Shown piece after piece: positions 1 to 24,454 of a DNA stretch of 32,849 nucleotides (positions are counted from its first letter, which is position 1; each line of letters starts with the position of its first letter). The position numbers were made by a program, and so were the translations under genes. The stretch lies in the sequence record DRR378314_1877; one strand, 5' to 3'. The notes beneath the pieces were generated by a model. It had not been told where the DNA came from, made no database searches, and saw nothing but the letters and a program-made list of their open reading frames with translations.

Positions 1-63
1 TTACAATTTTCAGTGCGTCTTACTGACTTCCCAAAATTGAGTTTCACTAATAAATATAACAAT

Positions 64-92
64 ATTCCCCTTCACAGCTTTGGAGGGGGAAT
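64..92. terminator. Possible intrinsic terminator hairpin downstream of the left-end minus-strand operon
   Basis: ATTCCCC (64-70) pairs with GGGGAAT (86-92), extendable by wobble pairs. It lies about 150 nt past the Rid stop, and the T tail is imperfect. Confidence 0.35.
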
Positions 93-241
93 TCATTTTC
101 ATTCATAGTTGGTTGGTTGGTTACAAAAGGAATATCGCTTTTCGGCTCCTACATGGAAATCCAACGGCTGTTGACCAGCGTCCTCGGCGGTTTACTTTTT
201 GATGGTAGAAAGGAAGGTATATATAATATTTGGCATCAAAT

Positions 242-823
242 TCAATCTGGCATTACCTCCACTATCATTTCGATCTCCACGGCTATATTCCCAGGAAGGG
301 ACCCCATACCCACTGCAGCGCGGGCATGTTTACCCCTATCTCCAAATACGGCCACCATTAAATCTGAATATCCATTGATCACCTTGGGATGATCAGGAAA
401 ATCCGGTCCTGCATTTACCATACCCAAAACCTTGACCACCCTTACTACCTTATTTAAATTTCCCAATTCCGATTTTAAGACCGATAATTGATTAATCCCC
501 GTAATTCGTGCGGCCTCATAACCCTCCTCTATCGTTAAATCTGTCCCGACCTTGCCCTCTATATTTTCGCCATTGGCTTGCAAAGGGCCTTTTCCAGAGA
601 GAAAGATGAGATTTCCAGAGCGAACGGCATTTACATAATTGGCTACAGGAGCACTGGCTTCCATTAAGGTTATGCCCAGTTCCTTAAGTTTTTCCTCTGG
701 ATTGTAATCGGCCGGAATCGTTGGGGTTTCAATATTAACTGCCGCCTCCACATCTTCTTTTTTTGTATTGCAGGACATGGTTATAAAGGCTATTAATGGG
801 ACTAAAAAAAACTTAAAATTCAT
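242..823 (-). CDS. RidA/YjgF/YER057c/UK114 family protein (Rid1-like) with a lipoprotein signal peptide
   Basis: Motifs PVANYVNAVRSGNLIFLSGKGP, INGYSDL, GKHARAAVG (catalytic Arg) and AVEIEMIVE. The N-terminus MNFKFFLVPLIAFITMSC is an SPII lipobox. Confidence 0.9.
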   Translation of the reverse strand: MNFKFFLVPLIAFITMSCNTKKEDVEAAVNIETPTIPADYNPEEKLKELGITLMEASAPVANYVNAVRSGNLIFLSGKGPLQANGENIEGKVGTDLTIEEGYEAARITGINQLSVLKSELGNLNKVVRVVKVLGMVNAGPDFPDHPKVINGYSDLMVAVFGDRGKHARAAVGMGSLPGNIAVEIEMIVEVMPD

Positions 824-860
824 ACGCTTGCTTTTAAAACTAATTTCTATTAATTACTAA

Positions 861-2075
861 TTACACATTTTCCAACACTTCCTTTATGCGTTTGGCGACT
901 ATTCTTTCCTGACCCGGATCCATCATCCAAGTAGTTATGCCTATAGTTTCCTTGTCGCCCACAGTGGCTATGGCAGGGTGACCTTCCATTAACTTTTTCC
1001 TGGCTTCCTCTGGACTAATCTTAACCAAATTGCTATCCCATTTAATACGTAGGGAAGGAACGTGGTTGGCATAAGGTGGTACATGTATTTCTGTCTGCAC
1101 CCCTTTTACGGATAAGGCACTGTCGCTAATTAATTTGATTTGATTTTCCCATAGCTCCCATTCCTTTTCATGATCTTTGGCCAAATACATTTCCAGGGCC
1201 ACCAGCATCCCCAAAACCTCTTCCTTGTTTACTTTCATCCCCCTACCAATTGTGCTTCCACGTGGTGGAGTATGTATCCTAGCCGCTTTGATGAGATCCC
1301 TTTTGCCCAATAACAATCCAGCACTTTGAGGTCCTCTAATTCCTTTTCCTCCTGAAAATGCCACTAAATCGAACCCCATCTTGGTAAACTTGAATAAGTT
1401 CTCCACTGGGGGTACGTCCGCGGCACAATCTATAAAAGTCGGAATACTGTGTTTTTTCCCAATAGCTAAAAATTCATCATATTTAATCTCACCATTGTCC
1501 GTATTGGCATTTAAAAACCAGAGCATTGCCGTGTTTTTATTAATGGCCTTCTCCATCTCCTTGGCTGTTTTTACCACCACTAGTTTGGCACCAACATTTA
1601 AAAGGGCATGGGTATAACCAATATTATGGCCTTCCTGAATTATTACTTCGTGCTTTAGTCCGGTAGTATCAGGAAGTTGGGCAGCTATTTCGGAATCCAT
1701 TCCAGAAATTACCCCTGCAAGCCCAATGGACATGGCCCCGAAGGCACCAGAAGAAACAGTGGCATATTCGCACTCTAACAATTCTGCAATTCGTTCACCA
1801 ACCTTGTCCTGAAGGTCATCCAAATCTACATATTCCGTAGCCCCAAAAACAATTGCCGAAGTAACCTCTTCGGACATTAGAGAACCGGTCATAGATGTAT
1901 AGGTTCCCGCTGCATTGATAAATGTTCGTATACCCAGCTCCTTGAAAAAATTTCGTTTTGCCGGTTGGGTTACTGCAGCACCAAGTAATTGTGGCGTTAA
2001 AAGTCCAGTACCTACCAATCCGCCCACCACAGGAACACTGGATAAGGTTTTCAATAATTTTCTCCTACTAAGCAT
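861..2075 (-). CDS. SelA-like/DgaE-family PLP-dependent enzyme (putative ammonia-lyase) with a Tat signal
   Basis: Motifs INAAGTYTSMTGS, IDCAAD, FSGGKGIRGPQSAG (PLP lysine) and IGRGMKVNKEE. The N-terminus has SRRKLLK followed by a hydrophobic stretch. Confidence 0.85.
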   Translation of the reverse strand: MLSRRKLLKTLSSVPVVGGLVGTGLLTPQLLGAAVTQPAKRNFFKELGIRTFINAAGTYTSMTGSLMSEEVTSAIVFGATEYVDLDDLQDKVGERIAELLECEYATVSSGAFGAMSIGLAGVISGMDSEIAAQLPDTTGLKHEVIIQEGHNIGYTHALLNVGAKLVVVKTAKEMEKAINKNTAMLWFLNANTDNGEIKYDEFLAIGKKHSIPTFIDCAADVPPVENLFKFTKMGFDLVAFSGGKGIRGPQSAGLLLGKRDLIKAARIHTPPRGSTIGRGMKVNKEEVLGMLVALEMYLAKDHEKEWELWENQIKLISDSALSVKGVQTEIHVPPYANHVPSLRIKWDSNLVKISPEEARKKLMEGHPAIATVGDKETIGITTWMMDPGQERIVAKRIKEVLENV

Positions 2076-2135
2076 AATTCATATTTTATAGATTAATCAA
2101 ATTCATTTCCTGTAAGCAATTGCCTTTAAACAGGT

Positions 2136-3389
2136 TTACTTCGCATTCCATATAGGCCTGGAAATACCATTAAGATCCCAGACCACATCTCCCTCCCTTA
2201 GGGTTAGCTCGCATTCCAATTTTTGATCGCCCAACATTTTTTTCCCCTGCGTATCAATAAACCCAAAGTTCCCCTTTCTAAGATTTAGAATTGTTAGGTC
2301 CGCCACGGCCCCAACCGTAAGGTGTCCCAAATCCGTGCGTTTAATATATTGGGCAGGATTCCAAGTCGCACACTCGATTACCTGTTTTGGGGTCAACCCC
2401 ATATTGATGAACTTCGACATAATATTGAGCATATCCTTCATTCCCCCGTTCATACTTCCCGTATGCAGATCCGTGCTTATGGAATTAGGTAAAAAACCCT
2501 GTTTTATGGCCGGAATGGCTTGCGCAAATACAAAGCTGCCACCGCCATGGCCTACATCAAAAATAATCCCACGTTTTTGGGCGTCAAAGACATACTTGCT
2601 TACCTTCCCATTTTCATCCACCACAGGAGTTCTTCCTTTTACATGGGCATAGGCATGGGTAAAGATGTCCCCAGGACGAAGCTTTTCCATAAGCAATGTT
2701 TCTAGGGACAACTCGGGTTCACTACCTCCAAAATCGATCATAACTGGGATATCGGCCATGGTACCCGCTGAAACCACCCTATTTACGGGTTCCCAATCAA
2801 AACCGCTATAATGGGCCAATTTTACCCCTACTATTGTTCCCTTGTGCTGTGAGGCAACATAAGCCGTCATTTTAGGGTTCATATCCTCTATATTTTGCTC
2901 AATGGCACCTCCCTTCATGCCCGACCCTATAATGTTCAAGAAGGACAATACCCTTGTTTTGGATTTATCGATCGTCTGTGCCTTGAACGTTTTAAAATTC
3001 TTCCATCCTGCTCCACCTACATCCACAATAGTGGTGACCCCACTTCTAAAGGTAAATCCATCAGGGGGCAAGGCACTAAAACTATTACTTAAGTACGCAT
3101 CCTCCTCGGTCCCAAAAAAATTGTGCCCATGAATATCAAGAAGTCCGGGAGCCACTATTAACCCCTTTGCATCTATCACCGTTTTGGCCTGGTTTTCTGG
3201 AATTTTGGAATCGACTTTTGCGATTTTGCCATCCTTTATGGCTACATCCATAACTTGGTCCAAATTATTTTTTGTGTCGACCACATGCCCACCCTTAATT
3301 AAAATGTCGTAGTCCTGTGCGCTCAAGGAAATAGTTGCCGCAAGCAATAGAATAATAACCCAAATCCGATTTTTTAGTATATTTTTCAT
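2136..3389 (-). CDS. Amidohydrolase/deacetylase family metallohydrolase (COG3964, dihydroorotase-like), Sec-exported
   Basis: Motifs PGLLDIHGH (HxH), SGVTTIVDVG, VGVKL (carboxylated Lys position), THAY, FDVGHGGGSF and ISTDLH. The signal peptide ends in ISLSA-Q. Confidence 0.85.
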   Translation of the reverse strand: MKNILKNRIWVIILLLAATISLSAQDYDILIKGGHVVDTKNNLDQVMDVAIKDGKIAKVDSKIPENQAKTVIDAKGLIVAPGLLDIHGHNFFGTEEDAYLSNSFSALPPDGFTFRSGVTTIVDVGGAGWKNFKTFKAQTIDKSKTRVLSFLNIIGSGMKGGAIEQNIEDMNPKMTAYVASQHKGTIVGVKLAHYSGFDWEPVNRVVSAGTMADIPVMIDFGGSEPELSLETLLMEKLRPGDIFTHAYAHVKGRTPVVDENGKVSKYVFDAQKRGIIFDVGHGGGSFVFAQAIPAIKQGFLPNSISTDLHTGSMNGGMKDMLNIMSKFINMGLTPKQVIECATWNPAQYIKRTDLGHLTVGAVADLTILNLRKGNFGFIDTQGKKMLGDQKLECELTLREGDVVWDLNGISRPIWNAK

Positions 3390-3432
3390 TTTTTAAAAAT
3401 ATTAGTTGATATAAACACCTCGCATATAAATT

Positions 3433-5151
3433 CTATAAACTGCTTCTTAGCTTCTTTACTTCTTCTGCTTTTATCTCCCCGGCATCATTCCCAAAATTGG
3501 TCCTGATGTAGGTCAGGACATCGGCCACTTCTTCATCACTCAAAAAACTATGTTGTGGCATTACCCCATTGTAGACCGCCCCGTTCACCTCCATGGAACC
3601 TTCCATTCCATTTAAAATAATATTGATCAATCTCTCTTTGTCACCAATTACCCATTCCGTTCCATTCAAAGGTGGAAATCTACCCGTGGCACCTCTACCA
3701 TCCTGTTGATGACAGGTACTGCAATAAGTATAATAAATCTTTTCACCTCCCGTAAATTCTCCCGCCATAAGATTATCCTTGGTTTCTTCCGGCGTTCTAA
3801 TGTGGGCCAATAGCTTTCTTTTTTCCATTTCCACTAATTGTTCCCTGCCAAAATTATTTTTGTCACCCTCAAAAACTATCTTCCATATCCTTCCCTTTAC
3901 TGAATCGGAAATGTACATACTGTCGTCGGGTCCAAACGCAATACCCATAGGCCTATACTCCGCATCTTTAACACTTACGATGGGATCTACCCCAGCAAAA
4001 CCATCGGCAAAAACTTCCCAATCCCCGGAAGGCTTTCCGTCCTTAAAAGGAACAAATCCAACAAAATACCCGGATTGTGGGTAAGGTGCTCTGTTGGTTG
4101 ATCCATGAAAAGCTATAAATGCCCCATTTTTATACCGCTCTGGGAGCTTATCCCCATCATAAAAAACCAAATCGTTTGGTGCCCAGTGTCCAGGAAAGCC
4201 CATTATAGGGTCATCAAATTCCTGACATCTCCCAATTATGTTTCCGTCGCCCCCATATTCAGGAGCAAGCACCTTTTTCTCCTGCATTTGGTCATAATAA
4301 CAATAGGGCCATCCAAAATTTGAACCTTCAGTAACTCTTATAAATTCTTCAGAAGGGAGCAAGGCACTTTCCCAACCGGAATAGATATTTGGAAATAATC
4401 TCAGCAAATCATCCCGTCCGTGCATTACAATATACAGATTTTCATCCTTAGAATTCCAATCCATTGCCACAACACTGCGTATCCCAGAGGCATATTTGTA
4501 ACCATCCTTTTGGGTCTGTCCCAGTTTGTTGGCATCAAAACGCCAGACACCGCCATGGTCCTCCAATTGTGGACATGGATCCATTCCCGGGGCTCCCGGA
4601 GTTCTTTTAGGGTTTTGACATGCATTGGAAGGGGCTCCAAAAGGAACATACATATTGCCTTTATTATCGAAAGCAATGGGCTTGCCTATATGTTCGTGCT
4701 TTCCATGTTCATGGTCATCGGTCATGACTATTTCCATTTCCCCTTCAGGTATTAAAGTTCCCGGTTTTAATTTATACCGATAAATAACCAGTTCAGAACT
4801 AAAATATAAATAGCCATTATAGATTCTCATCGCCGTAGAATAACTCCATTTTTGAAGCGTACGGTACGCCCCAAATTTTTCTATTACCTCGGCCCTGCCA
4901 TCATTATTTTTATCTTGAAGTGCAACTATGCCCCCTTTTTCATTGGAGTTTCTAAGTTTGCCGTACAATATACCATCGTCCGTCATAGCCATATGCCGAA
5001 CCCTTTCCTCTATACTATCCACGACCACCACCGCCTTAAAACCTTCAGGTAAAAATAGGCCTCCGTTAGTTGGTTGTGGCTCACATTGGACCAATAAGAA
5101 TACCGGGGCAATACAAAAAATTAGTTTTTTGAAATACGGGGAAATAGGCAT
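3433..5151 (-). CDS. PQQ-dependent sugar/sorbosone dehydrogenase-like beta-propeller fused to a C-terminal class I cytochrome c; probable lipoprotein
   Basis: Propeller motifs GIRSVVAMDW, HGRD, FGWPYCY, FPGHWAPND, AFHGS and RPMGIA. Heme motif CSTCH with a distal MP. ATG 5151 gives MPISPYFKKLIFCIAPVFLLVQC (lipobox) and is preferred over the ORF-track start at 5214. Confidence 0.85.
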   Translation of the reverse strand: MPISPYFKKLIFCIAPVFLLVQCEPQPTNGGLFLPEGFKAVVVVDSIEERVRHMAMTDDGILYGKLRNSNEKGGIVALQDKNNDGRAEVIEKFGAYRTLQKWSYSTAMRIYNGYLYFSSELVIYRYKLKPGTLIPEGEMEIVMTDDHEHGKHEHIGKPIAFDNKGNMYVPFGAPSNACQNPKRTPGAPGMDPCPQLEDHGGVWRFDANKLGQTQKDGYKYASGIRSVVAMDWNSKDENLYIVMHGRDDLLRLFPNIYSGWESALLPSEEFIRVTEGSNFGWPYCYYDQMQEKKVLAPEYGGDGNIIGRCQEFDDPIMGFPGHWAPNDLVFYDGDKLPERYKNGAFIAFHGSTNRAPYPQSGYFVGFVPFKDGKPSGDWEVFADGFAGVDPIVSVKDAEYRPMGIAFGPDDSMYISDSVKGRIWKIVFEGDKNNFGREQLVEMEKRKLLAHIRTPEETKDNLMAGEFTGGEKIYYTYCSTCHQQDGRGATGRFPPLNGTEWVIGDKERLINIILNGMEGSMEVNGAVYNGVMPQHSFLSDEEVADVLTYIRTNFGNDAGEIKAEEVKKLRSSL

Positions 5152-5487
5152 TGATTGTATATTTAATAAACCTGTGATTGACTCTCCATCATGGGCAATT
5201 TTCACCAAAACCAATTATTCCCCAAGTATGATTTGGACTGGAATTGTTGTATTACCCGATAATAATATATTCAGCCTGCATGTAATTCCTGCCTTAAACT
5301 TTATAAGATGTGTACGAACACATCTTAAATTTAATAATACTTTGGAAAACCTACCTATTTTATTACCAATATTTAACAATTAAATTGTCCAATTGAAATA
5401 AAAGTGCGATTTCTATTGAAGGATTACAAAAAATATCCCTTTAAAATATCTTGTTCCTGAAATGACTTGGAATTACCCTGTTATTGT

Positions 5488-6216
5488 TTATTGAAAAATC
5501 AGTTTGCCAAAAAATTCGGGTCTGTGATAATCGGGCTTTTCGGTTCCAACCGGATTCCAGGTCAAATAATGGCGTTGGGAAGTAGCATCGCCACATTTAT
5601 AAAAATTTGCAGTGCTCTTTAAGCCCTTTAATTTAATTTCAGGATTATGGGTGAGGATCTCAGCAGGTATTATTATGGTCATTTCCCAAGAAAAATCGCC
5701 CGTCCTTTCCGTAAAAGTTTGAGATCCCAGGGAGCTTTGTACCTCAATCAAATTCTTTATAGTATTTGGGTCAACAAATTGACGCTGACCTCTTCCTGCT
5801 CCATAAGCCAAATGGACGGTGCCTATACAATTGAATTCAAAATTATAATAATCCCCATTCCCTAGAGGGTCAAAAAAAAATTCCACACAACTATCGCGGG
5901 CCACAGGACCATTGGTTTCCCCAACACTGGCTAGAATGTTTTTTTCCTTAACGTAATATTTTATCCAAATAGCATTGTTGCTATGTGCTATCCTAAATGC
6001 TACACTTGGCCGATAAGAGAATTGATCCCAATTTATTAAGTCGATTGCCTGCAGTTCAGCATGCTCTTCCAAGAGTCGGGATACCTGTTCCAAACCAGCT
6101 TGTCCTTTAAATTCTATTTCTTTGACCTTTAGCATTTTCTCCTGACTTTGTATTTCAGATTTGCAAGACATCATTATCCCGCATAGGCACAAAATAAAAA
6201 ATTTCCTTTTACACAT
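5488..6216 (-). CDS. Carbohydrate-binding family 9-like (DOMON-like) lipoprotein
   Basis: Motifs DSCVEFFFDP, YYNFEFNCIG, ANFYKCGD and PDYHRPEFFG typical of CBM9-like proteins. Probable ATG 6216 gives MCKRKFFILCLCGIMMSC (lipobox); the ORF is open to 6240. Confidence 0.8.
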   Translation of the reverse strand: MCKRKFFILCLCGIMMSCKSEIQSQEKMLKVKEIEFKGQAGLEQVSRLLEEHAELQAIDLINWDQFSYRPSVAFRIAHSNNAIWIKYYVKEKNILASVGETNGPVARDSCVEFFFDPLGNGDYYNFEFNCIGTVHLAYGAGRGQRQFVDPNTIKNLIEVQSSLGSQTFTERTGDFSWEMTIIIPAEILTHNPEIKLKGLKSTANFYKCGDATSQRHYLTWNPVGTEKPDYHRPEFFGKLIFQ

Positions 6217-6318
6217 ATGGCAAATCTTATAATAGTACAAATTAGCTAAAATTTGTCATCCACACTTCATGAAGCCAGAATTATGAACATAGGAATAAAC
6301 AAACCTTATAAAGGCACA

Positions 6319-7338
6319 TTACTCCCCACTTAGTAGACTACTCAAAATTTCATAGGACTTTAAACGGTCCTGATGATCAAAAATGTGGGATACCGCCATT
6401 ATTTCATTGACCCGGGTTGCTTCAATAAAATCGGTAAGCTGTGCCTTTATAGTTTCTCTTGATCCTACAAAACTATAGTGCATCATTTGTTGTATTTGGG
6501 CTTTTTCCATCCCCTGCCAAATACCATCCATACTCTCTACTGGCGGTGGCAAAGGCCTTCTTGTATTCCTTATAATTCCTAGGGCCAATTGTTGAAGGCT
6601 GGTCTCCAAGAATCTGGCCTTTTCGTCCGTTTCAGCAGCAATCACATTTACACAGGCAATAGTATAGGGAGCCTTACATTGTAGTGAAGCCTCAAAATTT
6701 TGATAGTAAAGCCTAAGGGCCTCGTGCAAATGGGTTGGTGCAAAATGACTCGCAAAAGCATATGGCAATCCCTTTGCACCCGCCAATTGAGCACTAAAGG
6801 TGCTTGAACCTAGTAAATATATTGGAATCTCCAGGCCTTCTCCAGGAATGGCCCGCACCGCTGCATGACTGTTTTCTTTAGAAAAATAGGTCTGTAAGGC
6901 CACTATATCCCTTGGAAAATCATGAACAGTTTCCGTTCGATCCCTCCTTAAGGCTTTTGCCGTTAGTTGATCGGTTCCCGGAGCTCTTCCCAAACCCAGG
7001 TCCACTCTCCCTGGATAAAGTGTCTCCAAGGTGCCAAATTGTTCCGCCACAATTAAAGGGGCATGATTGGGCAACATAACTCCTCCAGAGCCTACCCTAA
7101 TTGTCTTGGTACCTTGGGCAATATGTCCTATTAAAATTGGTGTGGCAGAACTCACCAAGCTTTCCATATTGTGATGCTCGGAAATCCAAAACCGCTCAAA
7201 ACCCAAATTTTCCACATGTTGAGCCAATTCCAAGCTTTTCTGTATGGATTGCAGTGCTGTTGACCCCTCGGCTACAGGCACCAAATCCAATACAGAGAGT
7301 TTTATGTTTCCTATGTTCTTGCCGTTATTTTGCACCAT
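6319..7338 (-). CDS. LLM-class flavin-dependent oxidoreductase (luciferase-like monooxygenase, YhbW-type)
   Basis: Motifs LSVLDL, FWISEHH, RVGSGGVMLPNHAP, LGLGRAPGTD, LLGSS and FASHF. Confidence 0.9.
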   Translation of the reverse strand: MVQNNGKNIGNIKLSVLDLVPVAEGSTALQSIQKSLELAQHVENLGFERFWISEHHNMESLVSSATPILIGHIAQGTKTIRVGSGGVMLPNHAPLIVAEQFGTLETLYPGRVDLGLGRAPGTDQLTAKALRRDRTETVHDFPRDIVALQTYFSKENSHAAVRAIPGEGLEIPIYLLGSSTFSAQLAGAKGLPYAFASHFAPTHLHEALRLYYQNFEASLQCKAPYTIACVNVIAAETDEKARFLETSLQQLALGIIRNTRRPLPPPVESMDGIWQGMEKAQIQQMMHYSFVGSRETIKAQLTDFIEATRVNEIMAVSHIFDHQDRLKSYEILSSLLSGE

Positions 7339-7462
7339 TTTCCAGATATTTTTAAGTGAATTGGAAAAGTTTAGTCGAACAGGATTATCATTCCTTAAAA
7401 CGAAACAAATTTATGAAGTTTACCATCCAAAAAAACGAACAAATTACCCTTGAGAAGCAAAA

Positions 7463-8869
7463 TTACTCCCGCTCATAAATAATGGTAAGGCCCGGATTTT
7501 CTTTTTTTAATTGGATTATGTCTGTCTTTGTCACTTGGGTTTGCCACAGGTAAATAGTCTTAAGCTTGGTGAGTTTTGGCACCAGCTCCAAAATACCTTT
7601 TGAAACTTTAGTGCCATAAAGATTAAGCGATTCCAAATTCTCCAACTGCGACAAGCTTTTTAATCCCGTATCGGTAATTTCATTTCCTTTGAGGTCAAGC
7701 TTTACCAAATTATGTAATAACCCGATTTTTTCGAGATACACGTCCTTCACCTTGGAATTACCCAGGTTTAACCAAACCAAATGCTCTTTTAGACCTAAAA
7801 GAACGTCTATATCGGAAGCCTTAAGAGTGTATTCACTCAAACTGTAATTGGCGTCCAGAAAATAATTATCCTTCATCAAAGGATTGATTACAAATCCACG
7901 ACTTATTAAGGAATCGACCACAGCCCGATCGGGAGGAGGAATTTTATTATTAAAAAGATTGTTCTTATCCAATCCAAGATAGTTACTTACCAAAGAGGAG
8001 AGTGATTTTTCTGTATCCAATTGGGTAACAAAACCGCTGGACGGTGCTCCCATTTTGATCCACCATTTGATCAACACTACTTCTTGGTCCGTCAACGGCA
8101 GTTTTCCCTCTGAAGGCATAAAATCGTCATGCTCCATAGGTAGGGTAATCCTTCGTACCAATTCACTCTTCAGGGCATCGCCCGGTACAATGGTGTTATC
8201 ACTTTCACCTCCAAGCATCATCATCTGATAGGAAGTAAGCATAAGGCCTCCTTTCTTTTTCCCTTCGTTATGACAACTAACACATTTGGATTGCATCATG
8301 GGCAATACCAAATCCAGAAACACATCAGCAGAATCCAATACGGCAACTTTTTTACGTGGCTCCATCTTGGAGGGCAATCCGGCCATATTCCTAACGGGAT
8401 TGGGGGCATATTGCAATAAATAGGTGGAACCATGGGTAAGGTTACCCCCCAAATGGCCTGTGAACATGAGTAAAAAACCGATTAAAAAAACTAAGATCCA
8501 TTTAGGAACAGATAGGGAGTTGTTCCATTTTTTATTGATATAGTAACACCCAAAGGACAAAAACATTACTGCAATACCAGCCCATTGATGATAAAACAAG
8601 GTATCCTCATCATAATCGCCACTAAGGGATAGGAAATAACCAAAAATTACAGCCACAACTGCACTTACCGCTCCCATAAACCATGCTAATGGGGTGTAAA
8701 TAGCCAAAGGCTTGTATTTGGGCCAGCGGGAAGCCATTTGTATCAAAATGGCCATAATAAGGAAACCTATGGGAAGATGTACCACTACTGGGTGAAATCT
8801 TCCTAAAAACAGTAGAATATCTGGCGGATTATCCAAAATACCCCCAATCATTAACAAAACAAAACCCAT
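7463..8869 (-). CDS. Membrane protein with a DUF2231-like TM domain, a planctomycete-type cytochrome c domain and C-terminal leucine-rich repeats
   Basis: About 4 TM helices with GRFHPVVVHLPIG, HQW and GHLGGNLTHG. Heme motif CVSCH with HDDFMP. LRR units LVWLNLGNSKV, LVKLDLKGNEI, LESLNLYGTKV and LKTIYLWQTQV. Confidence 0.85.
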   Translation of the reverse strand: MGFVLLMIGGILDNPPDILLFLGRFHPVVVHLPIGFLIMAILIQMASRWPKYKPLAIYTPLAWFMGAVSAVVAVIFGYFLSLSGDYDEDTLFYHQWAGIAVMFLSFGCYYINKKWNNSLSVPKWILVFLIGFLLMFTGHLGGNLTHGSTYLLQYAPNPVRNMAGLPSKMEPRKKVAVLDSADVFLDLVLPMMQSKCVSCHNEGKKKGGLMLTSYQMMMLGGESDNTIVPGDALKSELVRRITLPMEHDDFMPSEGKLPLTDQEVVLIKWWIKMGAPSSGFVTQLDTEKSLSSLVSNYLGLDKNNLFNNKIPPPDRAVVDSLISRGFVINPLMKDNYFLDANYSLSEYTLKASDIDVLLGLKEHLVWLNLGNSKVKDVYLEKIGLLHNLVKLDLKGNEITDTGLKSLSQLENLESLNLYGTKVSKGILELVPKLTKLKTIYLWQTQVTKTDIIQLKKENPGLTIIYERE

Positions 8870-8874
8870 TTATG

Positions 8875-9819
8875 CTATTTAAGAGGAGTACCCTTCAAAG
8901 GTTTTCCATTGGTAGTCAAAATCTGAAAGTGATGCACCCTATGTCCGTCATAACTCCAGACCAAGGATTTATCGGGAGACACCTCAAACAGTTTTATTCC
9001 CTTTTGTGCCCCGTAACTGGCAATTACCGTATTTCCGTTGGGTAATCTTTGAGCTCCGCAAGGGTCAACAAATGGAGACTCCTTTACATGGGAATTGTTT
9101 ATTTCCCAAACCACTTTGCCATTGGCATCAAACTCTACCACCTTGTTCCCATGGGTTAAAGTAACTAAGGTATTGCCATTATCCAAGCGAATGGCCGTAA
9201 AGGGCCAATTTTCTGCTTCCCTACCTCCCAAATCTGCCAAATCCGTTCTAAAAACATTCACCACATTACCGTCTGGTTGGTATTCCTTAACGGCAAAGGC
9301 CAATAAATGGGGTGCCAAGTAATTTCCATTCGTCAATTTCCTGGCCATTCGTGTCTGCATATGAATATTATCGGTATCTGGTTTTAGAGGAACACTTTTA
9401 ACCACCTCCCCTTTTTTATTGACCTCAACTATTCTTGGATTTGATCCTGATTCGGTAATCATAGTATTGCCATTGGACAAACGCACCGCAGTTCCCAATT
9501 CCATAGTTTTCTCTGCTCGGGAATAGGTGAAAACCACCTTCTTTTTCTTATTGTATTCCCGCACTTCGTCTGCCCAACAAATAAGGATATTGCCATTATT
9601 TAAGACATAACCGTCCCTTGCGCCCTTTTTTCCGGAATCCCAAATTTCCTCCCCATCCTCTCCAATAATCCCTGTAAAATTCGGTCCCGCTATAAAAAAC
9701 GAATGCCTAATTTCTTTTGCCTTTATGGGGAAATGATCAGGTTGAAAAGTAATGCCCTGATTTACAAAAAACAGGGGGGACATCATTAATAAGAGCAGTC
9801 CTTTGCTAAAAATATTCAT
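8875..9819 (-). CDS. Secreted beta-propeller repeat protein of unknown function
   Basis: N-terminal signal-like segment. Five (R/K/V)LxNGN blade repeats: VLNNGNIL, RLSNGNTM, KLTNGNYL, RLDNGNTL, RLPNGNTV. Confidence 0.7.
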   Translation of the reverse strand: MNIFSKGLLLLMMSPLFFVNQGITFQPDHFPIKAKEIRHSFFIAGPNFTGIIGEDGEEIWDSGKKGARDGYVLNNGNILICWADEVREYNKKKKVVFTYSRAEKTMELGTAVRLSNGNTMITESGSNPRIVEVNKKGEVVKSVPLKPDTDNIHMQTRMARKLTNGNYLAPHLLAFAVKEYQPDGNVVNVFRTDLADLGGREAENWPFTAIRLDNGNTLVTLTHGNKVVEFDANGKVVWEINNSHVKESPFVDPCGAQRLPNGNTVIASYGAQKGIKLFEVSPDKSLVWSYDGHRVHHFQILTTNGKPLKGTPLK

Positions 9820-9846
9820 TCGCGTGTATTAAAATTAAAGTTTGGT

Positions 9847-11298
9847 TTAGGCTAAAATATCCTTTACAAGGTTCCCGTGAACATCCGTCAATCTCATGTC
9901 ACGGCCCCCAAATCGGAAGGTCAATTGTTTGTGATCCAATCCCAGCAAGTGCATAATGGTTGCATGTAGATCATGTACCGTTACTTCGTTTTCTATTACT
10001 CGGTAACCATATTCATCGGTTTTGCCAAAGATAGTACCTCCTTTAACACCCGCTCCTGCCATCCACATACTAAACGCGGACGGATTGTGGTCCCTACCAT
10101 CCGTTCCCTGTGCGAAGGGTGTTCTTCCGAATTCTCCGGTCCAAACCACCAATGTTTCCTCCAAAAGTCCACGGGACTTTAAATCCTTGAGCAGTCCGGC
10201 TATAGGTTGGTCAACGGCATGTGCATTTTTTTCATGGCCTTTTTTTAAATTACTGTGCTGGTCCCATCTGTCAACACCTGGACCAACGTTGGGACAAGTA
10301 AGTTCTACAAACCTAACGCCCCTCTCTATCAACCTTCTTGCCAAGATGCATTGAGAAGCATACCCCCTCAAATTGGGATCATCGGAATCCATGCCATACA
10401 GTTTTTTGGTGGCCTCAGTTTCCTCCTTAAACTCGGTAAGTTCTGGAATGGAGGATTGCATTTTATAGGCAAGTTCATAATTGGAAATGGCAGATTCCAC
10501 GGCATCGGCCTCTCCAATTTTCCCAATTAAACTATTATCCAATTGTTTAATAAACTGAAGTTTTTCCTCCTGAAGATTTTTAATGCCTTCCCTTGGGTTG
10601 ATATTGGCTACAGGTTCTGGACCAGATTTAAATACAGAAGCCTGATAGGATGCCGGCAAAAACCCATTCTTAAAATTGTCCAATCCTCCTGGGGGAACCA
10701 GCCCTCCGTCCAGAACAACATAGCCAGGTATATTTTTATTCTCGCTCCCCAATCCATAGTTCATCCAGGCACCCATACTTGGGCGTCCCTGTAAACCACT
10801 ACCGGTATGTAAAAAATAATTGGCATTGGTATGTTCCGGAAAATTGGAAACCATGGATCTTATTAGAGCAATGTCGTCTACGCAGGTGGCAATATGTGGA
10901 AACAGATCGCTCACCGGCATCCCACATTCCCCGTATTGCTTAAAATCCCATGGACTTTTTAATATCTTGCCCACATTGTCGAACTGTGTGGCATCTACCT
11001 TAAATTTCTTTCTTGGATCCTCCCCGTTCTCCTTGGTGAGACGCGGTTTGGGATCAAAGGAGTCCACTTGCGATACTCCCCCATCCATATAGAGAAAGAT
11101 TACGTTTTTTGCCTTGGGCAAATAATGCGGTCCCAAATAAAGGTTGGAAGCAGTTTCTAGGTGACTTGCCCTTTTGCAACCAAATGGCAGGGTCCCAAAA
11201 AGGCCCATAAAAGCCAGTGACCCGAAACCTCCGGCCGATAAGCCCAACATTTCCCGACGGGAAATAACCCTTGGTTTAGTATTGTGATGATGGCCCAT
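9847..11298 (-). CDS. DUF1501 domain protein (sulfatase/alkaline-phosphatase-like fold), Tat-exported
   Basis: SRREML twin-arginine motif. Motifs KAKNVIFLYMDGGVSQVDSFDPKP, ARRLIERGVRFV, WDQH, GEFGRTP, GRDH, HDLHATI and RLTDVHG. Confidence 0.92.
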   Translation of the reverse strand: MGHHHNTKPRVISRREMLGLSAGGFGSLAFMGLFGTLPFGCKRASHLETASNLYLGPHYLPKAKNVIFLYMDGGVSQVDSFDPKPRLTKENGEDPRKKFKVDATQFDNVGKILKSPWDFKQYGECGMPVSDLFPHIATCVDDIALIRSMVSNFPEHTNANYFLHTGSGLQGRPSMGAWMNYGLGSENKNIPGYVVLDGGLVPPGGLDNFKNGFLPASYQASVFKSGPEPVANINPREGIKNLQEEKLQFIKQLDNSLIGKIGEADAVESAISNYELAYKMQSSIPELTEFKEETEATKKLYGMDSDDPNLRGYASQCILARRLIERGVRFVELTCPNVGPGVDRWDQHSNLKKGHEKNAHAVDQPIAGLLKDLKSRGLLEETLVVWTGEFGRTPFAQGTDGRDHNPSAFSMWMAGAGVKGGTIFGKTDEYGYRVIENEVTVHDLHATIMHLLGLDHKQLTFRFGGRDMRLTDVHGNLVKDILA

Positions 11299-14273
11299 TA
11301 TATAAGGTATATGAATTCTTTTAAATTAAAAATACTATGACAATACTCTTTCCATAATGCCAATTCTTGGTTATCCGAAGCATCTGCCTTTCCCTCCATG
11401 GTCCTCAGCATATCAAAAAAATTGGATGCCTTCTCAAGTTCTTCCGAAGTTGCCAAACGTGAAAAAGCCTGTATATAAATCCATTGTACTTTTTCCTCAA
11501 AACTGACCAATCCTTTTTCCAATAACTTTCCGGCCATGATTTCTGCCTGTTGTTCAACCAATGGATCGTTCATTAATATCAAGGATTGCGAAGGCACATT
11601 GGTAACGTTCCTACTCCCAAAAGTGCTAAAGGGAATTGGACGGTCAAAGGTGGTCATCATTGGCTCCAAGAAATTCCTTCGGACCTCCAAATAAATACTT
11701 CTCCGGCCTTCCCCATCTATAGGCCCTGATTTCCCAGGCCGGCCACGACCTTGCATAAATTCTGTAAGATAAGTAGCTACTGGTGGCCCGTACATAGTGG
11801 AATCCAAACTTTCTGTAACTACCAGTATTCCATCGCGAATGGCCTCAGCCTCCAACCTTCTTACAGGAAATGAAGCCAAATAAATATTGTTGGGATCCTT
11901 ATTGGCCAGCAAATCATTCCTTAAAGTACTCCTTTTAAAAGTCTCTGAAGTAACTATTGCCCTTATCATGCTTTTTATGGACCAGCCATCATTCTGAAAT
12001 TTAACAGCCAGGTAATCCAAGAGTTCAGGATGGGATGGCAATTTTCCCTGAAGGCCAAAATTGTCAACAGTTTCCACAATTCCTCTCCCAAACAAATGGT
12101 GCCAAATCCGGTTTACCATCACACGGGATGTTAAAGGATTATCCTTGTTCAACATCACCTCAGCTAATTCCATACGACCGCTACCTTCAGATTTAAATAC
12201 GGAATCGCCCAATGACAATACCGATAAAAATCTCCTAGGAATAGGTTCTTCGGAAGGCTCCTTATAGTTGCCTCTATTAAAAATAGGACTGTCAATTCCG
12301 TAACCATCGTATATCCCATTAAAAAAGGAATCGGTTTTTAATCTATTGGCCAATTGTTGGCTACTATCCACCACCGGTTTCAATTCAGGGAAATTTAAAG
12401 GCAATTTTCCCTTTTTAAGATCTTCGTTAAGCATTTTAACTTTGTACGGAGAGATATCCAAGGTGGCCCAATTATCATTGACCTGTTCCAAGCTAATCCC
12501 ATTTTCCATATCGGCCGGCCATTCGCCATCATAGGCAATGGCATATTGTGCCTCAATATATGCATCCTCAGGTAGATTATATATGTGGCGCTCATAACCC
12601 CCTGGTATAATTTCAATATATGCCTTTCTGCCTTTCCAGGCCGCCACGTTAAAAACAAAATTATTCCAGTTCCCGGTATTCACCCTTTGGTCCATTCCCC
12701 CATAAATGGGATTTTGGATCAATTGAAAATTGTCTATAATTATTCTAATACTACTGTTTTGACCAAGGGCCCTAACCCCAATAAAATCTTTATCCAAGAC
12801 CATATTCGGAGATCGCAAGGCTCCAAAAATTCCCATTCCCATTGCCTTGCTGGAAGCCTTCCCGTCCTGCAATCCAAGCAATTTACCGGTAGCCGGATCT
12901 ACTATGGGGTCGCCCAGGGTAGATCGCTGTCCAAAAGCAAAACCATCACTGGTCCAACCATCAAAATCGCTGCCTCTAAAGTCGCCTATAAGGGTATAAT
13001 TTGTATTTGTCGTGGCTACTGCAGTATTCTGCGCAAGTTCTGCATTTTCAGCACTATTTTTCTCTGTTGACCATTTACTGGCCACCAACTTTCGCATATA
13101 GGCTTTAAGATCGACCAATTCCTTGGCCGCCAATTTTTTGTCCTTACTAACATCGGCAGGAACAGGCGAAAACCTGGTACTTTCCATTACCCCATAAAGT
13201 GCATAATAATCCGCCGCAGTAATGGGATCGAACTTATGGTCGTGACATTTTGCACAGGAAACCGTCAATCCCTGAAAGGTCTTGGTAGTAACGTCTATCA
13301 TATTATCAATACGATCTGCCTCGTCCTGGCGCACATCAACAGGACTATGGGTGCCTTCACCCATTACATAGAAAGTAGTACCGAGCCTAGATTCGGAAAC
13401 TCCGGTTTCCTTATTTTCCCTAGTATTCTCCAATAAGTCCCCAGCGATATGTTCTTTTAAAATTTGATCGTAGGGTACATCCTCGTTAAATGCCCTGATC
13501 AAATGGTCACGGTATTTCCAGGCACCCGTTATGGTATAATCAAATTCGTGGCCCTTTGTTTCGGCGTAGCGCACCAAATCCATCCAATGTCTTGCCCATC
13601 TTTCCCCAAAAGCAGGTGAATTCAAATAAACATCTACCATATTATTATAGGCCACCTTAGTGGTATCAGCAATAAATTTCTGTACCTCCTTTGGATTTGG
13701 AGGTAAGCCGGTAAGTAAATAGGATACTCTACGGATAAGGGAATTTTTATTGGCAATTGGAACTTTTTCCAAGCCTTTCACTTCCATTTGCTTGCCTATT
13801 AAAAAATCGATGGCATTGGGGTCTTCTAGGTCCATTTTGGTTTCCGGGCTAATAAAGGACCAATGTTCTTTCCATTGCGCCCCTTGATCAATCCACTTGT
13901 TCAAAAGGGCTTTTTCCCTCTCGGTAAGTTTCAGATTGGTCTCAGGTGGTGGCATTATCTGGCCAGGATCTTCGTTATAAATACGCTGCACCAGATTACT
14001 TTTGGAAGTCTTCCCTGGCACAATGGCATGACCGCCTTCCTTGAGCGCCGCCGTGGCACCTTCGTAAGTATCCAGTCGCAATTCCGCTTTTCTACTACTT
14101 GGGTCGGGACCGTGGCACAAATAACAATTCTGTACCAATATGGGTTTTACGTGAAAATTAAAATCGACCACTTTAGGTAAAGGTTCAGAGAACTGTTGTG
14201 ATCTATCACAAGAAATTCCGAGAACACCTAGGCTACAAAATAAGATCAGGACATTAATTCTACGCAAATACAT
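11298..14273 (-). CDS. PSD1/planctomycete cytochrome c domain protein (PSCyt1 + DUF1549 + DUF1553), lipoprotein
   Basis: Lipobox LGISC. Heme motifs CYLCH (with MPP) and CAKCHDHKFDP. Motifs GERWARHWMDLVRYAET, RVMVNRIWHHLFGRGIV, PSHPELLD and RRLEAEAIRD. ATG 14273 is preferred over TTG 14279. The stop overlaps the next start (TAATG). Confidence 0.92.
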   Translation of the reverse strand: MYLRRINVLILFCSLGVLGISCDRSQQFSEPLPKVVDFNFHVKPILVQNCYLCHGPDPSSRKAELRLDTYEGATAALKEGGHAIVPGKTSKSNLVQRIYNEDPGQIMPPPETNLKLTEREKALLNKWIDQGAQWKEHWSFISPETKMDLEDPNAIDFLIGKQMEVKGLEKVPIANKNSLIRRVSYLLTGLPPNPKEVQKFIADTTKVAYNNMVDVYLNSPAFGERWARHWMDLVRYAETKGHEFDYTITGAWKYRDHLIRAFNEDVPYDQILKEHIAGDLLENTRENKETGVSESRLGTTFYVMGEGTHSPVDVRQDEADRIDNMIDVTTKTFQGLTVSCAKCHDHKFDPITAADYYALYGVMESTRFSPVPADVSKDKKLAAKELVDLKAYMRKLVASKWSTEKNSAENAELAQNTAVATTNTNYTLIGDFRGSDFDGWTSDGFAFGQRSTLGDPIVDPATGKLLGLQDGKASSKAMGMGIFGALRSPNMVLDKDFIGVRALGQNSSIRIIIDNFQLIQNPIYGGMDQRVNTGNWNNFVFNVAAWKGRKAYIEIIPGGYERHIYNLPEDAYIEAQYAIAYDGEWPADMENGISLEQVNDNWATLDISPYKVKMLNEDLKKGKLPLNFPELKPVVDSSQQLANRLKTDSFFNGIYDGYGIDSPIFNRGNYKEPSEEPIPRRFLSVLSLGDSVFKSEGSGRMELAEVMLNKDNPLTSRVMVNRIWHHLFGRGIVETVDNFGLQGKLPSHPELLDYLAVKFQNDGWSIKSMIRAIVTSETFKRSTLRNDLLANKDPNNIYLASFPVRRLEAEAIRDGILVVTESLDSTMYGPPVATYLTEFMQGRGRPGKSGPIDGEGRRSIYLEVRRNFLEPMMTTFDRPIPFSTFGSRNVTNVPSQSLILMNDPLVEQQAEIMAGKLLEKGLVSFEEKVQWIYIQAFSRLATSEELEKASNFFDMLRTMEGKADASDNQELALWKEYCHSIFNLKEFIYLI

Positions 14274-14296
14274 TGTCAAAATTTTATACTCATTGT

Positions 14297-14657: not shown

Positions 14658-15302
14658 TTAAAATAGAAGTTCTAGATCCACTATTTTATTAATAGAATGC
14701 TCCGCCTTGGGAACATCTCCAAAGCCATATTTGGCAAAAACAAAAGGAATTTGGTTCCCAATCGCCGCCGTATAATCTCCCATGGTATCCCCAATATAGA
14801 TGGGTTTGGTGAGTTTATTTCTTTCAATGACCATTTTTACGTTTTCAGTCTTTGACAAGCCCGTATTGCCCGAACATTCAAAATCTTTGAAGTAAGCACT
14901 TAAACCATGAAATTCATAAAAGGCTTCTATATAGCCGGCCTGACAATTACTGACTATAAACAGATCATACTTTTTACCTAAGGTTTTCAAAGTTGCCTCC
15001 AATCCATGGTACAAAACCCCTCCGGACTCCTTAATGTCATTTACCTCCTGTACATAGCAACTATTCATAACTTGAAATTGCTGCTCTTCGCTTAAATATG
15101 GAAATAATTTCTTACCTACCAAATCGTGCTGCATTCCCAAAATACCCTGTATATCTTCCTCCGAAATGGGGTTTTTAATACAATCGAATCCATTCAAAGC
15201 TGTATGCCAAGCCTTAATGCTCATGGGCATAGGGTCCCATAGGGTTCCATCCAGGTCAAAAATGATGTTTTCAATATTGTCCCTTAAATCACTCAGAGCC
15301 AT
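14658..15302 (-). CDS. HAD-superfamily hydrolase (phosphatase)
   Basis: Motif I IFDLDGTL, motif II VSN, conserved Lys in SKTEN and motif IV YIGDTMGD. No signal peptide. Confidence 0.9.
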   Translation of the reverse strand: MALSDLRDNIENIIFDLDGTLWDPMPMSIKAWHTALNGFDCIKNPISEEDIQGILGMQHDLVGKKLFPYLSEEQQFQVMNSCYVQEVNDIKESGGVLYHGLEATLKTLGKKYDLFIVSNCQAGYIEAFYEFHGLSAYFKDFECSGNTGLSKTENVKMVIERNKLTKPIYIGDTMGDYTAAIGNQIPFVFAKYGFGDVPKAEHSINKIVDLELLF

Positions 15303-15330
15303 TTTTTAAAAGTTTTAAATAGTACAGGTC

Positions 15331-16338
15331 CTAAATTAAGTTGACTACCTCACCTGTTTCGGCCGATTTATAGGCCGCATCCACAATGTCCAGCACCATT
15401 TGTCCTTCCGAAAGTCCTGGAACCGGTTGTTGTCTGGTTTTGAGACATTCAACAAAATACTCCATTTGACGGGTATAGATTATTTGGTCGCAGTGATCCT
15501 CCCTTTTTGGAAGCTCGGGCACTGTGGTTACCGTACCTTCACCTTCCTTCATTTTTAAAAATGTAGGAAACAGATTGGCATAACCCTTTGTGCCAAACAG
15601 ACTGGTACTAGCTTCAGGTCCGTCCATATGTGGATGCCACCATCCACTTTCAATGATGCTTTCCGTGCCATTGTCCCAAGTAATTACCAAGATTCCCGTG
15701 TCGTCTACATCATAATCCCCAAATTCCGTGGAAATTCTGGCATATACCTTTACGGGTTTTGGATCTCCCAAGATATATCTTACTGCATCAATGGCATGCA
15801 CCCCCATATCTGCCAAGGCCCCGCCCCCGGCCAACTCCTTTTTGGTAAACCATCCGGAAGGGCCCCAATTTTCATGTATTCCGTAGCCCTTGGTCTTAAA
15901 TACTCTTCCTATTGTTCCCGAGGCTACGGTATCCTTTATATAACGGGTATCGGTATCGAAACGCCACATATGACCAACCATCACCAATTGGTTATGCTTG
16001 GTTGCTACCTCAGCTATTTGTTTGCCTTCATCACCACTCATTCCCATGGGTTTTTCAAGAAAAACATCCTTACCATTCTGCAAAAACTCTATGGCATAGG
16101 GAGCGTGAAATTGATTGGGAGTACTTATAATTACCGCATCCAGATCATCCCTTTTTACCAATGATGAAATATCGATCAAAGCCTCTTTAATATTGTATTT
16201 AAGGGCAAATTTTTGGGCATTATCTAGGTTTTTGGACACTACGGCCGCTATTTCAACATCGGCCAAGGTTTGCAGTCCACGAGCGTGATAATCCGATATA
16301 AATCCCGCACCTATTAGGGCTATTTTAATTTTTTCCAT
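15331..16338 (-). CDS. Gfo/Idh/MocA family NAD(P)-dependent oxidoreductase
   Basis: Rossmann motif IGAGFIS, STPNQFH, EKP and GGGALADMGVHAID. No signal peptide. Confidence 0.92.
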   Translation of the reverse strand: MEKIKIALIGAGFISDYHARGLQTLADVEIAAVVSKNLDNAQKFALKYNIKEALIDISSLVKRDDLDAVIISTPNQFHAPYAIEFLQNGKDVFLEKPMGMSGDEGKQIAEVATKHNQLVMVGHMWRFDTDTRYIKDTVASGTIGRVFKTKGYGIHENWGPSGWFTKKELAGGGALADMGVHAIDAVRYILGDPKPVKVYARISTEFGDYDVDDTGILVITWDNGTESIIESGWWHPHMDGPEASTSLFGTKGYANLFPTFLKMKEGEGTVTTVPELPKREDHCDQIIYTRQMEYFVECLKTRQQPVPGLSEGQMVLDIVDAAYKSAETGEVVNLI

Positions 16339-16381
16339 TTTTTATAAATTACTTAAATTTCTATGGCCGGGCAGTAGCGTT

Positions 16382-17200: not shown

Positions 17201-17254
17201 CTGTTAAAAATATTATTTTCTAAAAGCTACAACTTTAGCACCACCAATACTGCC

Positions 17255-18538: not shown

Positions 18539-18567
18539 TGTCAATGGTTGTTATAATAAGATTTCGT

Positions 18568-19689: not shown

Positions 19690-19716
19690 AACAAGGAAAA
19701 GAACTCTTTCTTGGGA

Positions 19717-22290: not shown

Positions 22291-22303
22291 TCTATATGTT
22301 TTA

Positions 22304-22534: not shown

Positions 22535-22551
22535 ACTTTTTTATTAAGGGG

Positions 22552-22767: not shown

Positions 22768-22768
22768 A

Positions 22769-24277: not shown

Positions 24278-24454
24278 TGATTTGGCATTTTGGTTAATTA
24301 CCTACAAATTAAATTCAAATAGAGGTGATTGAATAAGTAAATCTTATTTCATTTACATGGTATATTGACATAAGACCTAGTTTTTTGACTTATTTCAGGG
24401 CAATTAAGTTAAAATTATAGCAGTTTGTATAATGAATGAAATATCACATAATAA

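Follow-up and report, generated by a model that had tools for sequence, protein, structure and literature searches.

Two described systems come closest to the gene cluster at the left end of sequence record DRR378314_1877 (the window, i.e. the whole analysed stretch of 32,849 nucleotides): the Dga pathway of Salmonella and the Ong pathway of Pseudoalteromonas prydzensis. The key enzyme of the Dga pathway, the cytoplasmic DgaE, depends on pyridoxal 5'-phosphate (PLP), is fed by a phosphotransferase system (PTS), is encoded in an operon with the PTS and DgaF, and acts on a 6-phosphorylated aminoaldonate by elimination, which is followed by aldol cleavage. In the part of the DgaE report that we draw on (PMC9529869), two histidines, His162 and His163, are strictly conserved, and His163 protonates C3, preventing the release of the enamine; docking places the phosphate of the substrate at Arg301, Arg332 and Arg346, and its carboxylate at Arg226. 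The Ong pathway serves oxidised chitin and comprises the deacetylase OngB, the deaminase OngC, the RidA protein OngD and the kinase KdgK; as far as the cited part of its description goes (PMC9537276), the reactions lead from the N-acetyl-aminoaldonate to the aminoaldonate, and then to a 2-keto-3-deoxy acid and ammonia, with the Rid protein being genetically required.

The cluster studied here lies within the first 6.2 kb of the window and consists of five minus-strand genes: a CBM9_2 lipoprotein gene (5488..6213), followed by the genes of an AA12/sGDH-like dehydrogenase that is fused to a cytochrome c (3433..5151; 572 residues from its ATG), an amidohydrolase of the PRK09237/COG3964 type (2136..3389; 417 residues), a SelA/DgaE-like PLP enzyme of fold type I (861..2075; 404 residues) and a Rid lipoprotein of the YjgF_endoribonc type (242..823; 193 residues). 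The intergenic gaps from the dehydrogenase to the Rid gene are 43, 60 and 37 nt, and the layout of the open reading frames (ORFs) agrees with the first-pass annotation, which had been made from the sequence alone and had listed four adjacent genes with gaps of 37-60 nt; the spacer between the CBM9_2 and dehydrogenase genes is 336 nt long. The related loci indicate Arenibacter, a marine genus of Flavobacteriaceae, as the source (15 records labelled Arenibacter, protein identity 92-98%), and the nearest genome compared (G001) is 99% identical in DNA over window positions 1-5300. We propose, with moderate confidence, that the cluster represents a Bacteroidota module for the extracytoplasmic breakdown of N-acylated amino sugars, along a route that is oxidative and non-phosphorylative, the window carrying a trimmed copy of it. 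On the best available reading, what is new is that Dga/Ong-type chemistry has been moved to the periplasm, with other enzyme families, no phosphorylation and a quinohemoprotein entry step; our literature search (supplements excepted) has found no description of this Bacteroidota module or of such chemistry in the periplasm.

Gene order, protein families, folds, co-occurrence and the conservation of signals and residues are observed, and from them we infer the substrates, products, cofactor and compartment of the following route. The lipoprotein dehydrogenase would oxidise the aldose at C1 to the lactone, with the electrons flowing through its own cytochrome c domain to the respiratory chain. 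The lactone would open to the N-acyl-2-amino-2-deoxy-aldonate, spontaneously in the case of the window copy, and with the help of SGL or PF10282 lactonases in fuller clusters. The Sec-exported amidohydrolase, which we propose to be a binuclear-metal N-acyl-aminoaldonate deacylase, would take off the acyl group; the PLP enzyme, our proposed 2-amino-2-deoxy-aldonate ammonia-lyase, exported through the twin-arginine translocation (Tat) system, would eliminate the C3 hydroxyl as DgaE does and release an enamine/imine; and the Rid lipoprotein, the proposed hydrolase of this enamine/imine, would convert it to the 2-keto-3-deoxy-aldonate and ammonia. In most relatives, the last steps would fall to an exported RraA-like aldolase, a second Rid protein and an SBF (PanS/BASS-like) transporter, which in Arenibacter would be supplied by a paralogous cluster. 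The lactonases, the RraA-like aldolase and the SBF transporter of the 2-oxo/hydroxy-acid type are what a sequence from sugar to lactone, aldonate, 2-keto-3-deoxy acid and cleavage would need. A further-reaching version, in which the whole pathway including the aldol cleavage is extracytoplasmic, only small 2-oxo acids, ammonia and acetate are taken up, and the lyase and deacylase paralogues are tuned to epimers, is a tentative extension that we consider rather doubtful.

The proposed order of reactions is the same as that of the Ong pathway, whose enzymes differ in being predicted to be cytoplasmic, with a kinase acting after them, and in receiving their aldonate from an extracellular lytic polysaccharide monooxygenase (LPMO) and not from a dehydrogenase (PMC9537276); the families also differ, OngB being of the D-aminoacylase type and OngC a D-amino-acid deaminase, as opposed to PRK09237 and SelA-like proteins, a distinction that is drawn from their descriptions there (PMC9537276). 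With DgaE, the PLP enzyme of the window shares the fold type and the Schiff-base lysine, but differs from it in its Tat-like leader and its surroundings: the PTS, sugar kinase and 2-keto-3-deoxy-6-phosphogluconate (KDPG) aldolase families have no match among the 20 window ORFs that were scanned by families, in line with the first-pass annotation, which had seen no PTS, kinase or DgaF aldolase in the window. In the fuller clusters, the aldolase is RraA-like, unlike the DgaF/KDPG aldolase of the Dga pathway.

The conservation of the cluster has been explored by scanning the PLP protein against one genome per species, which gave 79 loci, 78 of them with a match that covers at least half of the query, and by placing the module proteins on these loci by tblastn; 65 loci could be assessed over at least 6.5 kb upstream, 74 over at least 1.4 kb upstream and 74 over at least 700 nt downstream. 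An amidohydrolase lies beside the PLP gene in 63 of the 65 loci with the longer upstream part (70 of 74 with the shorter one), a dehydrogenase-cytochrome c in 57 of 65, and a CBM9_2 gene upstream in 51 of 65; a second Rid protein, of the L-PSP type, occurs in 50/65 loci, an RraA-like protein in 39/65 and an SBF transporter in 35/65, and the window-type Rid follows downstream of the PLP gene in 61/74. The commonest order, found in 18 loci and checked with Pfam on locus L020, is CBM9-dehydrogenase-amidohydrolase-SBF-RraA-Rid-PLP-Rid; the order of the window, CBM9-dehydrogenase-amidohydrolase-PLP-Rid, occurs in 10, and the window copy is a trimmed form of the module. Since the loci are mostly from Flavobacteriaceae, shared ancestry inflates these counts.

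A sample of 401 genomes spread evenly over Bacteroidota contains PLP homologues (E<=1e-20) in 10 genomes, from five families, and amidohydrolase homologues (E<=1e-40) in 12; all ten PLP-positive genomes carry the amidohydrolase within 5 kb. Stretches from 8 of the 9 positives other than G001 show the module families in varied order and copy number, the richest being a 17-kb locus (L088) with three PLP enzymes, four amidohydrolases, two dehydrogenases, an SGL lactonase, an RraA-like protein, an SBF transporter and both Rid types; additional neighbours in the distant loci are a PF10282 lactonase, a canonical GSDH of 379 residues, CBM9_1 proteins, a GntP permease, LacI/GntR regulators and SusC. 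This shuffled recurrence in other families and classes, together with the ten-out-of-ten co-occurrence, argues that the adjacency is more than chance; a lack of co-conservation, which the first-pass annotation had named as the result that would undo its reading, is not what the 78 related loci and the distant Bacteroidota present. One of the two genomes that have an amidohydrolase homologue and no PLP homologue carries it with an internal TAA stop (G159:C1:3334022-3335236), which suggests a remnant of the module in decay.

The comparison of the PLP enzyme with DgaE concerns both its ancestry and its likely chemistry. The protein matches the SelA family (PF03841, 38.3 bits), and its best solved relative is Salmonella DgaE (7lc0; 5e-33 by phmmer, 8e-53 with a profile of 22 sequences), while it stays below the cut-offs of the DgaE families (TIGR01437, 187 vs 385.3 bits; NF047797, the DgaE equivalog, 154 vs 600). 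Lys244 (codon 1344..1346, minus strand; motif S-G-G-K), invariant in the 22 sequences, is aligned with the Schiff-base lysine in the S-G-A-K motif of DgaE by the pairwise and the profile alignment alike. For a wider view, the best 150 of the 736 clusters that form the family at E<=1e-30 were examined, with 112 near-full-length representatives among them; the S-G-x-K lysine is present in 111 of the 112. The His-His pair of DgaE is missing: His162 corresponds to Asn191 in both alignments and His163 to Thr192 in the profile alignment or to a gap in the pairwise one, and in the His162-His163 segment none of the 112 representatives has HH. Of the phosphate-site arginines, Arg301 corresponds to Ser341, Arg332 to Asp374, and Arg346 lies in an insertion that is absent from the PLP enzyme, this C-terminal part of the alignment being less certain; at the carboxylate site, Arg226 is replaced by Lys258, with Arg259 beside it, so that a basic residue is kept. 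Thus, with the cut-offs missed and the His-His pair and phosphate arginines gone, the PLP enzyme is not a DgaE orthologue, though it is built alike. The loss of a His163 equivalent fits a need for dedicated Rid partners, and the loss of the phosphate-site arginines fits an unphosphorylated substrate; both readings follow from the predicted absence of the phosphate site and of the enamine-retaining residue. A need for a 6-phosphorylated substrate, which the first-pass annotation had counted as a possible objection to its proposal, is accordingly not indicated by the aligned residues. Across the family, an arginine at the Arg301 column occurs in 8 of 39 representatives with a Tat-like leader and in 28 of 62 leaderless ones, a weak trend in an uncertain part of the alignment.

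The four proteins from the dehydrogenase to the Rid each begin with an N-terminal signal, as expected from the first-pass annotation, which had all four exported, and the CBM9_2 leader is lipoprotein-like as well. The leaders of the dehydrogenase (...FLLVQC) and of the Rid (...ITMSC) end in a lipobox-like motif, and the amidohydrolase has a Sec-type leader that ends in SLSA/QD. The leader of the PLP enzyme (residues 1-35, MLSRRKLLK...; 1971..2075, minus strand) contains S-R-R-K-L-L-K, which fits the S/T-R-R-x-F-L-K-type Tat motif, and continues with a mild h-region, whose hydropathy is 1.79, compared with 2.9-3.2 in the Sec and lipoprotein leaders. R4 and R5 are invariant in the alignment, and an RR pair is found within the first 35 residues in 76 of 76 full-length orthologues; among distant homologues, 12 of 16 have RR and the other 4 RK. 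In the family at large, a Tat-like leader is predicted in 39 and no N-terminal extension in 62 of the 112 representatives. Conservation extends to the lipobox cysteines of the Rid and dehydrogenase and to the Sec leader of RraA. A cytoplasmic location, which the first-pass annotation had named among the results that would undo its reading, is not indicated by these leaders. Judging from these motifs, we propose that the PLP enzyme is exported in the folded state, with its cofactor, by Tat.

The dehydrogenase combines a six-bladed AA12/sGDH-like beta-propeller (approximately residues 24-445; PF07995 GSDH, 43.8 bits, cut-off 25) with a C-terminal class-I cytochrome c (approximately 455-572; PF00034 Cytochrom_C, 42.7 bits). 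A sequence search has found no solved relative of the propeller. In an AlphaFold2 model (mean predicted local distance difference test score, pLDDT, 85), the best folds from the Protein Data Bank are the pyrroloquinoline quinone (PQQ) dehydrogenases of family AA12 from Trichoderma and Coprinopsis (6i1q, 6i1t, 6h7t and 6jt5; template modelling (TM) score 0.73 on the target), followed by the bacterial PQQ sugar dehydrogenases 3das, 7cdy, 3a9g, 2ism, 2g8s and 1c9u, with 12-18% sequence identity to the solved PQQ enzymes. The window protein thus shares its propeller fold with the AA12 pyranose dehydrogenases CcPDH and TrAA12 and with bacterial sGDH/Asd (YliI). In the aligned orthologues and paralogues (39 sequences), the lipobox Cys23, His244-Gly-Arg-Asp, His322, His349 and Arg400 are invariant and His152 and His154 nearly so, a pattern that, at the level of sequence, fits what the cited part of the literature describes for CcPDH and sGDH, and the enzyme is presumably PQQ-dependent. 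The cytochrome domain matches haem-c domains (E 1e-23); its haem attachment motif C-S-T-C-H (residues 477-481; 3709..3723, minus strand) has C477, C480 and H481 invariant in the same alignment, as are M531 and P532, which fits a methionine as axial haem ligand. Coprinopsis CcPDH is likewise a fusion of a propeller and a cytochrome, in the style of a quinohemoprotein, according to the cited part of its description (PMC6881789); its cytochrome is an N-terminal AA8 b-type domain, whereas that of the window protein is C-terminal and of the c-type. For the CBM9_2 protein (PF16011, 228 bits), the model (pLDDT 91) comes closest to 4jpq (TM 0.95), a Bacteroides protein of unknown function, and is also similar to CBM9 modules bound to glucose or cellobiose (7nwo, 1i82); the similarity to the haem-binding relatives 2ivf_C and 7b04 is weaker. 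The protein probably belongs to the operon as a fifth member, with an accessory role in either sugar binding or electron transfer.

The amidohydrolase exceeds the cut-off of its family (NF006689/PRK09237, 446.9 bits; cut-off 371), and its closest solved structures are 8je0, named 'Amidase' (7e-52), 2ogj (8e-41), 8wzy and 2ics (4e-33); the literature search turned up no mention of 8je0. His87, His89, Lys190, His245, His281 and Asp307, which we take from the superfamily to be the metal ligands, are conserved in 70 sequences. The subfamily and the ligand pattern are common to the window protein and the COG3964 proteins Atu3266 (2ogj) and EF_0837 (2ics), the NCBIfam name being 'amidohydrolase/deacetylase'; these two proteins, in contrast to the amidohydrolase of the window, are not known to carry an export signal.

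The Rid protein matches PF14588 with 68 bits (cut-off 35) and PF01042 with 47.9 bits, and does not belong to the RidA subfamily proper (TIGR00004, 38 vs 106 bits); the closest structures are 3d01, PA0814 (9bk9) and ACIAD3089 (9bkb). Its lipobox cysteine and Arg168, located in the motif H-A-R-A-A, are conserved in 64 sequences, and from the motif we take Arg168 to be the equivalent of RidA Arg105, which is needed for imine hydrolysis. In one genome (G367; L094:11514-13079, minus strand), a 521-residue ORF joins a seven-bladed PF10282 lactonase (25-362) to a YjgF_endoribonc Rid domain (375-512). This fusion adjoins PLP, Rid, RraA and amidohydrolase genes, and ties a sugar-lactone step to the step of imine hydrolysis.

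The functions that the window copy lacks can be located elsewhere in the nearest genome. Apart from the counterparts of the window's PLP enzyme and amidohydrolase (99% identity each), G001 encodes a single further homologue of either protein (35% and 61% identity, respectively). These two genes lie approximately 66 kb away, in a cluster of ten minus-strand genes with the order: membrane protein without family match, dehydrogenase-cytochrome c, SGL lactonase, amidohydrolase, 543-residue PLP enzyme, Rid, RraA-like protein, DUF4440, SBF transporter (PanS-like, 231 bits, below cut-off) and DUF7133-cytochrome c. Every soluble protein of this cluster has an N-terminal signal, with twin-arginine motifs in the PLP enzyme and the Rid; thus, the lactonase, aldolase and transporter that are missing from the window operon are encoded elsewhere in G001 and appear to be exported likewise. 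In the fuller clusters, the RraA-like protein has matches to 5x15 (1e-12) and 3noj (1e-7) and keeps the Arg-Asp pair of HMG/CHA aldolase and RraA-like proteins in the alignment with 5x15, but, unlike these, carries a Sec leader and an N-terminal extension of approximately 90 residues. The PLP paralogue (L004:6174-7805, minus strand; 35% identical) has a C-terminal extension of approximately 135 residues that, in our comparisons, matches no family and resembles neither Rid nor other module proteins; the long form also occurs in genomes G116 and G287. The apparently polytopic membrane protein of 390 residues that heads the cluster (L004:12204-13376, minus strand) has no Pfam or NCBIfam match at E<=0.01, and weak homologues of it (31-33%) are found near a PLP gene in locus L082.

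Taken together, the first-pass proposal of oxidation, deacetylation and deamination is largely borne out in silico, gaining from the clustering, the export signals and the predicted loss of the phosphate site, with its leftward continuation dropped. Several observations weigh against the proposed module function. The scores far under the DgaE cut-offs and the loss of strictly conserved DgaE residues mean that the reaction of the PLP enzyme might differ. The window operon itself has no lactonase, aldolase or transporter. The export calls come from motifs judged by eye, a hydropathy script and conservation, and since Bacteroidota lipoproteins may sit on the cell surface, those of the module may be either periplasmic or surface-exposed. 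The PqqC profile TIGR02111 has no match in G001, and is uninformative, since its control matched no genome either. GH18 chitinases and AA10 LPMOs (LPMO_10) have no match in G001, positive controls having matched for both, so that a chitin origin is not indicated; the assumption of a chitin/N-acetylglucosamine origin has been rejected on these grounds. The many lyase and deacylase paralogues of other genomes suggest several related substrates.

One alternative concerns the place of the dehydrogenase in the scheme: the core of amidohydrolase, PLP enzyme and Rid might use sugar acids that have been oxidised outside beforehand (such as aldonic ends left by the LPMOs or oxidases of other organisms), with the dehydrogenase as a general periplasmic aldose enzyme and occasional companion. 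Three loci of the Arenibacter type (L015, L018 and L073) lack the dehydrogenase gene between CBM9_2 and the amidohydrolase and keep the CBM9, amidohydrolase, PLP and Rid genes, so that the oxidation step would be dispensable in some genomes; the gene is missing from 8 of the 65 loci and from the vicinity of the module in two of the eight distant genomes examined; a third paralogue in G001 (L005 6692-8479, G001:C1; 55% identical) stands alone, with no other module family beside it, which could mean that the link to the module is loose; and the Ong pathway, in the cited part of its description, begins at ready-made N-acetylglucosaminate (GlcNAc1A; PMC9537276). Against this, most loci have the dehydrogenase gene immediately before the amidohydrolase gene and in the same orientation; lactonases from two unrelated families join the module, and are needed only if the lactone is formed in situ; and the lactonase-Rid fusion couples the lactone and imine steps. 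On balance, we regard this alternative as unlikely. Slightly less likely still is a substrate of another kind: N-acyl-D-amino acids that carry a leaving group in the beta position (N-acetyl-D-serine and N-acetyl-D-threonine are examples), either exported or taken from the environment, with cell-wall turnover as a possible source. These would lose their acyl and amino groups in the periplasm, and the sugar-type genes would be unrelated neighbours. The characterised COG3964 enzymes (2ogj/Atu3266; acetyl-(R)-mandelate) are reportedly esterases on acetylated alpha-hydroxy acids with weak hydrolysis of N-acetyl-D-serine, a point that counts for this alternative and against the deacylase that we propose; N-acetyl-D-serine can be seen as a shortened analogue of an N-acetyl-aminoaldonate. 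Serine/threonine dehydratases typically have Rid partners, and enzymes of the DgaE type act on a D-amino-acid centre, according to the cited part of the DgaE report (PMC9529869). What speaks against amino acids is that dehydrogenases, lactonases, CBM9 proteins, the GntP permease and sugar-type regulators cluster with the module even where its order is shuffled, and that an aldolase-type RraA would have no role once pyruvate or 2-oxobutyrate had been formed.

An aminotransferase or other non-lyase activity of the PLP enzyme, in a cluster that modifies or builds a periplasmic amino-sugar acid or detoxifies an amino-sugar antibiotic, is improbable: fold-type-I enzymes are catalytically versatile, and the missing His-His pair and low family scores leave room for such a role, but one or two Rids, an aldolase-like protein and an uptake transporter favour a route of elimination and cleavage, and no genes for handling amino donors or acceptors and no glycosyltransferases are conserved nearby. 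To inherited synteny without a functional link we assign a very slight probability; Flavobacteriaceae account for most of the 79 loci, and relatives have gene order in common, yet the families re-assemble in different order and copy number in other families and classes, the PLP and amidohydrolase genes co-occur in ten of ten genomes when the latter is present in only 12 of 401, and one protein unites two of the functions. We retain the extracytoplasmic catabolism of N-acylated amino sugars as the reading to be preferred.

In the sea, much of the dissolved organic carbon and nitrogen consists of amino sugars, which have Flavobacteriaceae among their chief consumers. If the proposed route is true, it would alter models of amino-sugar turnover, ammonium release and respiration in these bacteria; it would also be a rare case of a PLP lyase that is active in the periplasm, and would for the first time place exported Rid proteins in a clear physiological setting. 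The further-reaching version would amount to an ATP-free harvest of marine amino sugars for energy, carbon and nitrogen, with electrons delivered directly to the respiratory chain via the fused cytochrome c. For annotation, it would bear on a family of 736 clusters, in which many homologues of the PLP enzyme now bear the label 'selenocysteine synthase' or 'L-seryl-tRNA selenium transferase', about one third of the 112 examined representatives having a Tat-like leader.

The operon appears to end at the Rid gene, and does not run past the left edge as the first-pass annotation had allowed. In G001, the next gene beyond the Rid codes for an AraC-type regulator, whose start is 435 nt away, and is followed by a copper ATPase gene; among the related loci, this regulator is found beside the module in Arenibacter only. 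In between lie a dispersed repeat and, approximately 150 nt past the Rid stop codon, a GC-rich hairpin with a U-rich tract (64..92, minus strand), which the RNA fold makes a candidate terminator that may close the operon; a terminator scan picked up the same stem on the plus strand, the T-run rule failing on the minus strand. The counts of the promoter and terminator scans lie near those expected from shuffled sequence (27 vs 20.7 and 9 vs 7.5), by a model that does not cover Bacteroidota promoters, and a search of window positions 1-7500 against Rfam (E<=0.1) has found no RNA family. In a seawater metatranscriptome (X3), contigs of the RNA library, with lengths of 141-396 nt each, touch all five genes, and none of them bridges a gene junction; the long pieces from runs X1 and X2 are probably DNA.

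The short dispersed repeat occupies window positions 1-54, its single copy in the window, and matches no Rfam family. Approximately 38 more copies (89-98% identity) occur in G001, four of them about 120 bp apart at G001:C3:642648-643059, and in metagenome contigs the repeat has a depth approximately ten times higher, with loose ends on both sides.

Farther to the right, window positions 14658-29879 hold a block that resembles a polysaccharide utilization locus, with SusC/SusD genes on the plus strand, a sodium:solute symporter, a GH2 protein with an exo-beta-D-glucosaminidase Ig-fold domain, a BNR_2 protein, a DegT-type aminotransferase, and GDPD, Gfo/Idh/MocA and HAD proteins; this block might supply amino sugars to the operon, and is not conserved beside the module in other genera. 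Between it and the operon, positions 7463-14279 code for proteins of a planctomycete type in what is a flavobacterium: a PSCyt1-DUF2231-LRR protein, a Mala_s_1-like propeller, a DUF1501 protein with a Tat-like leader and a 993-residue PSCyt1-PSCyt2-PSD1 protein.

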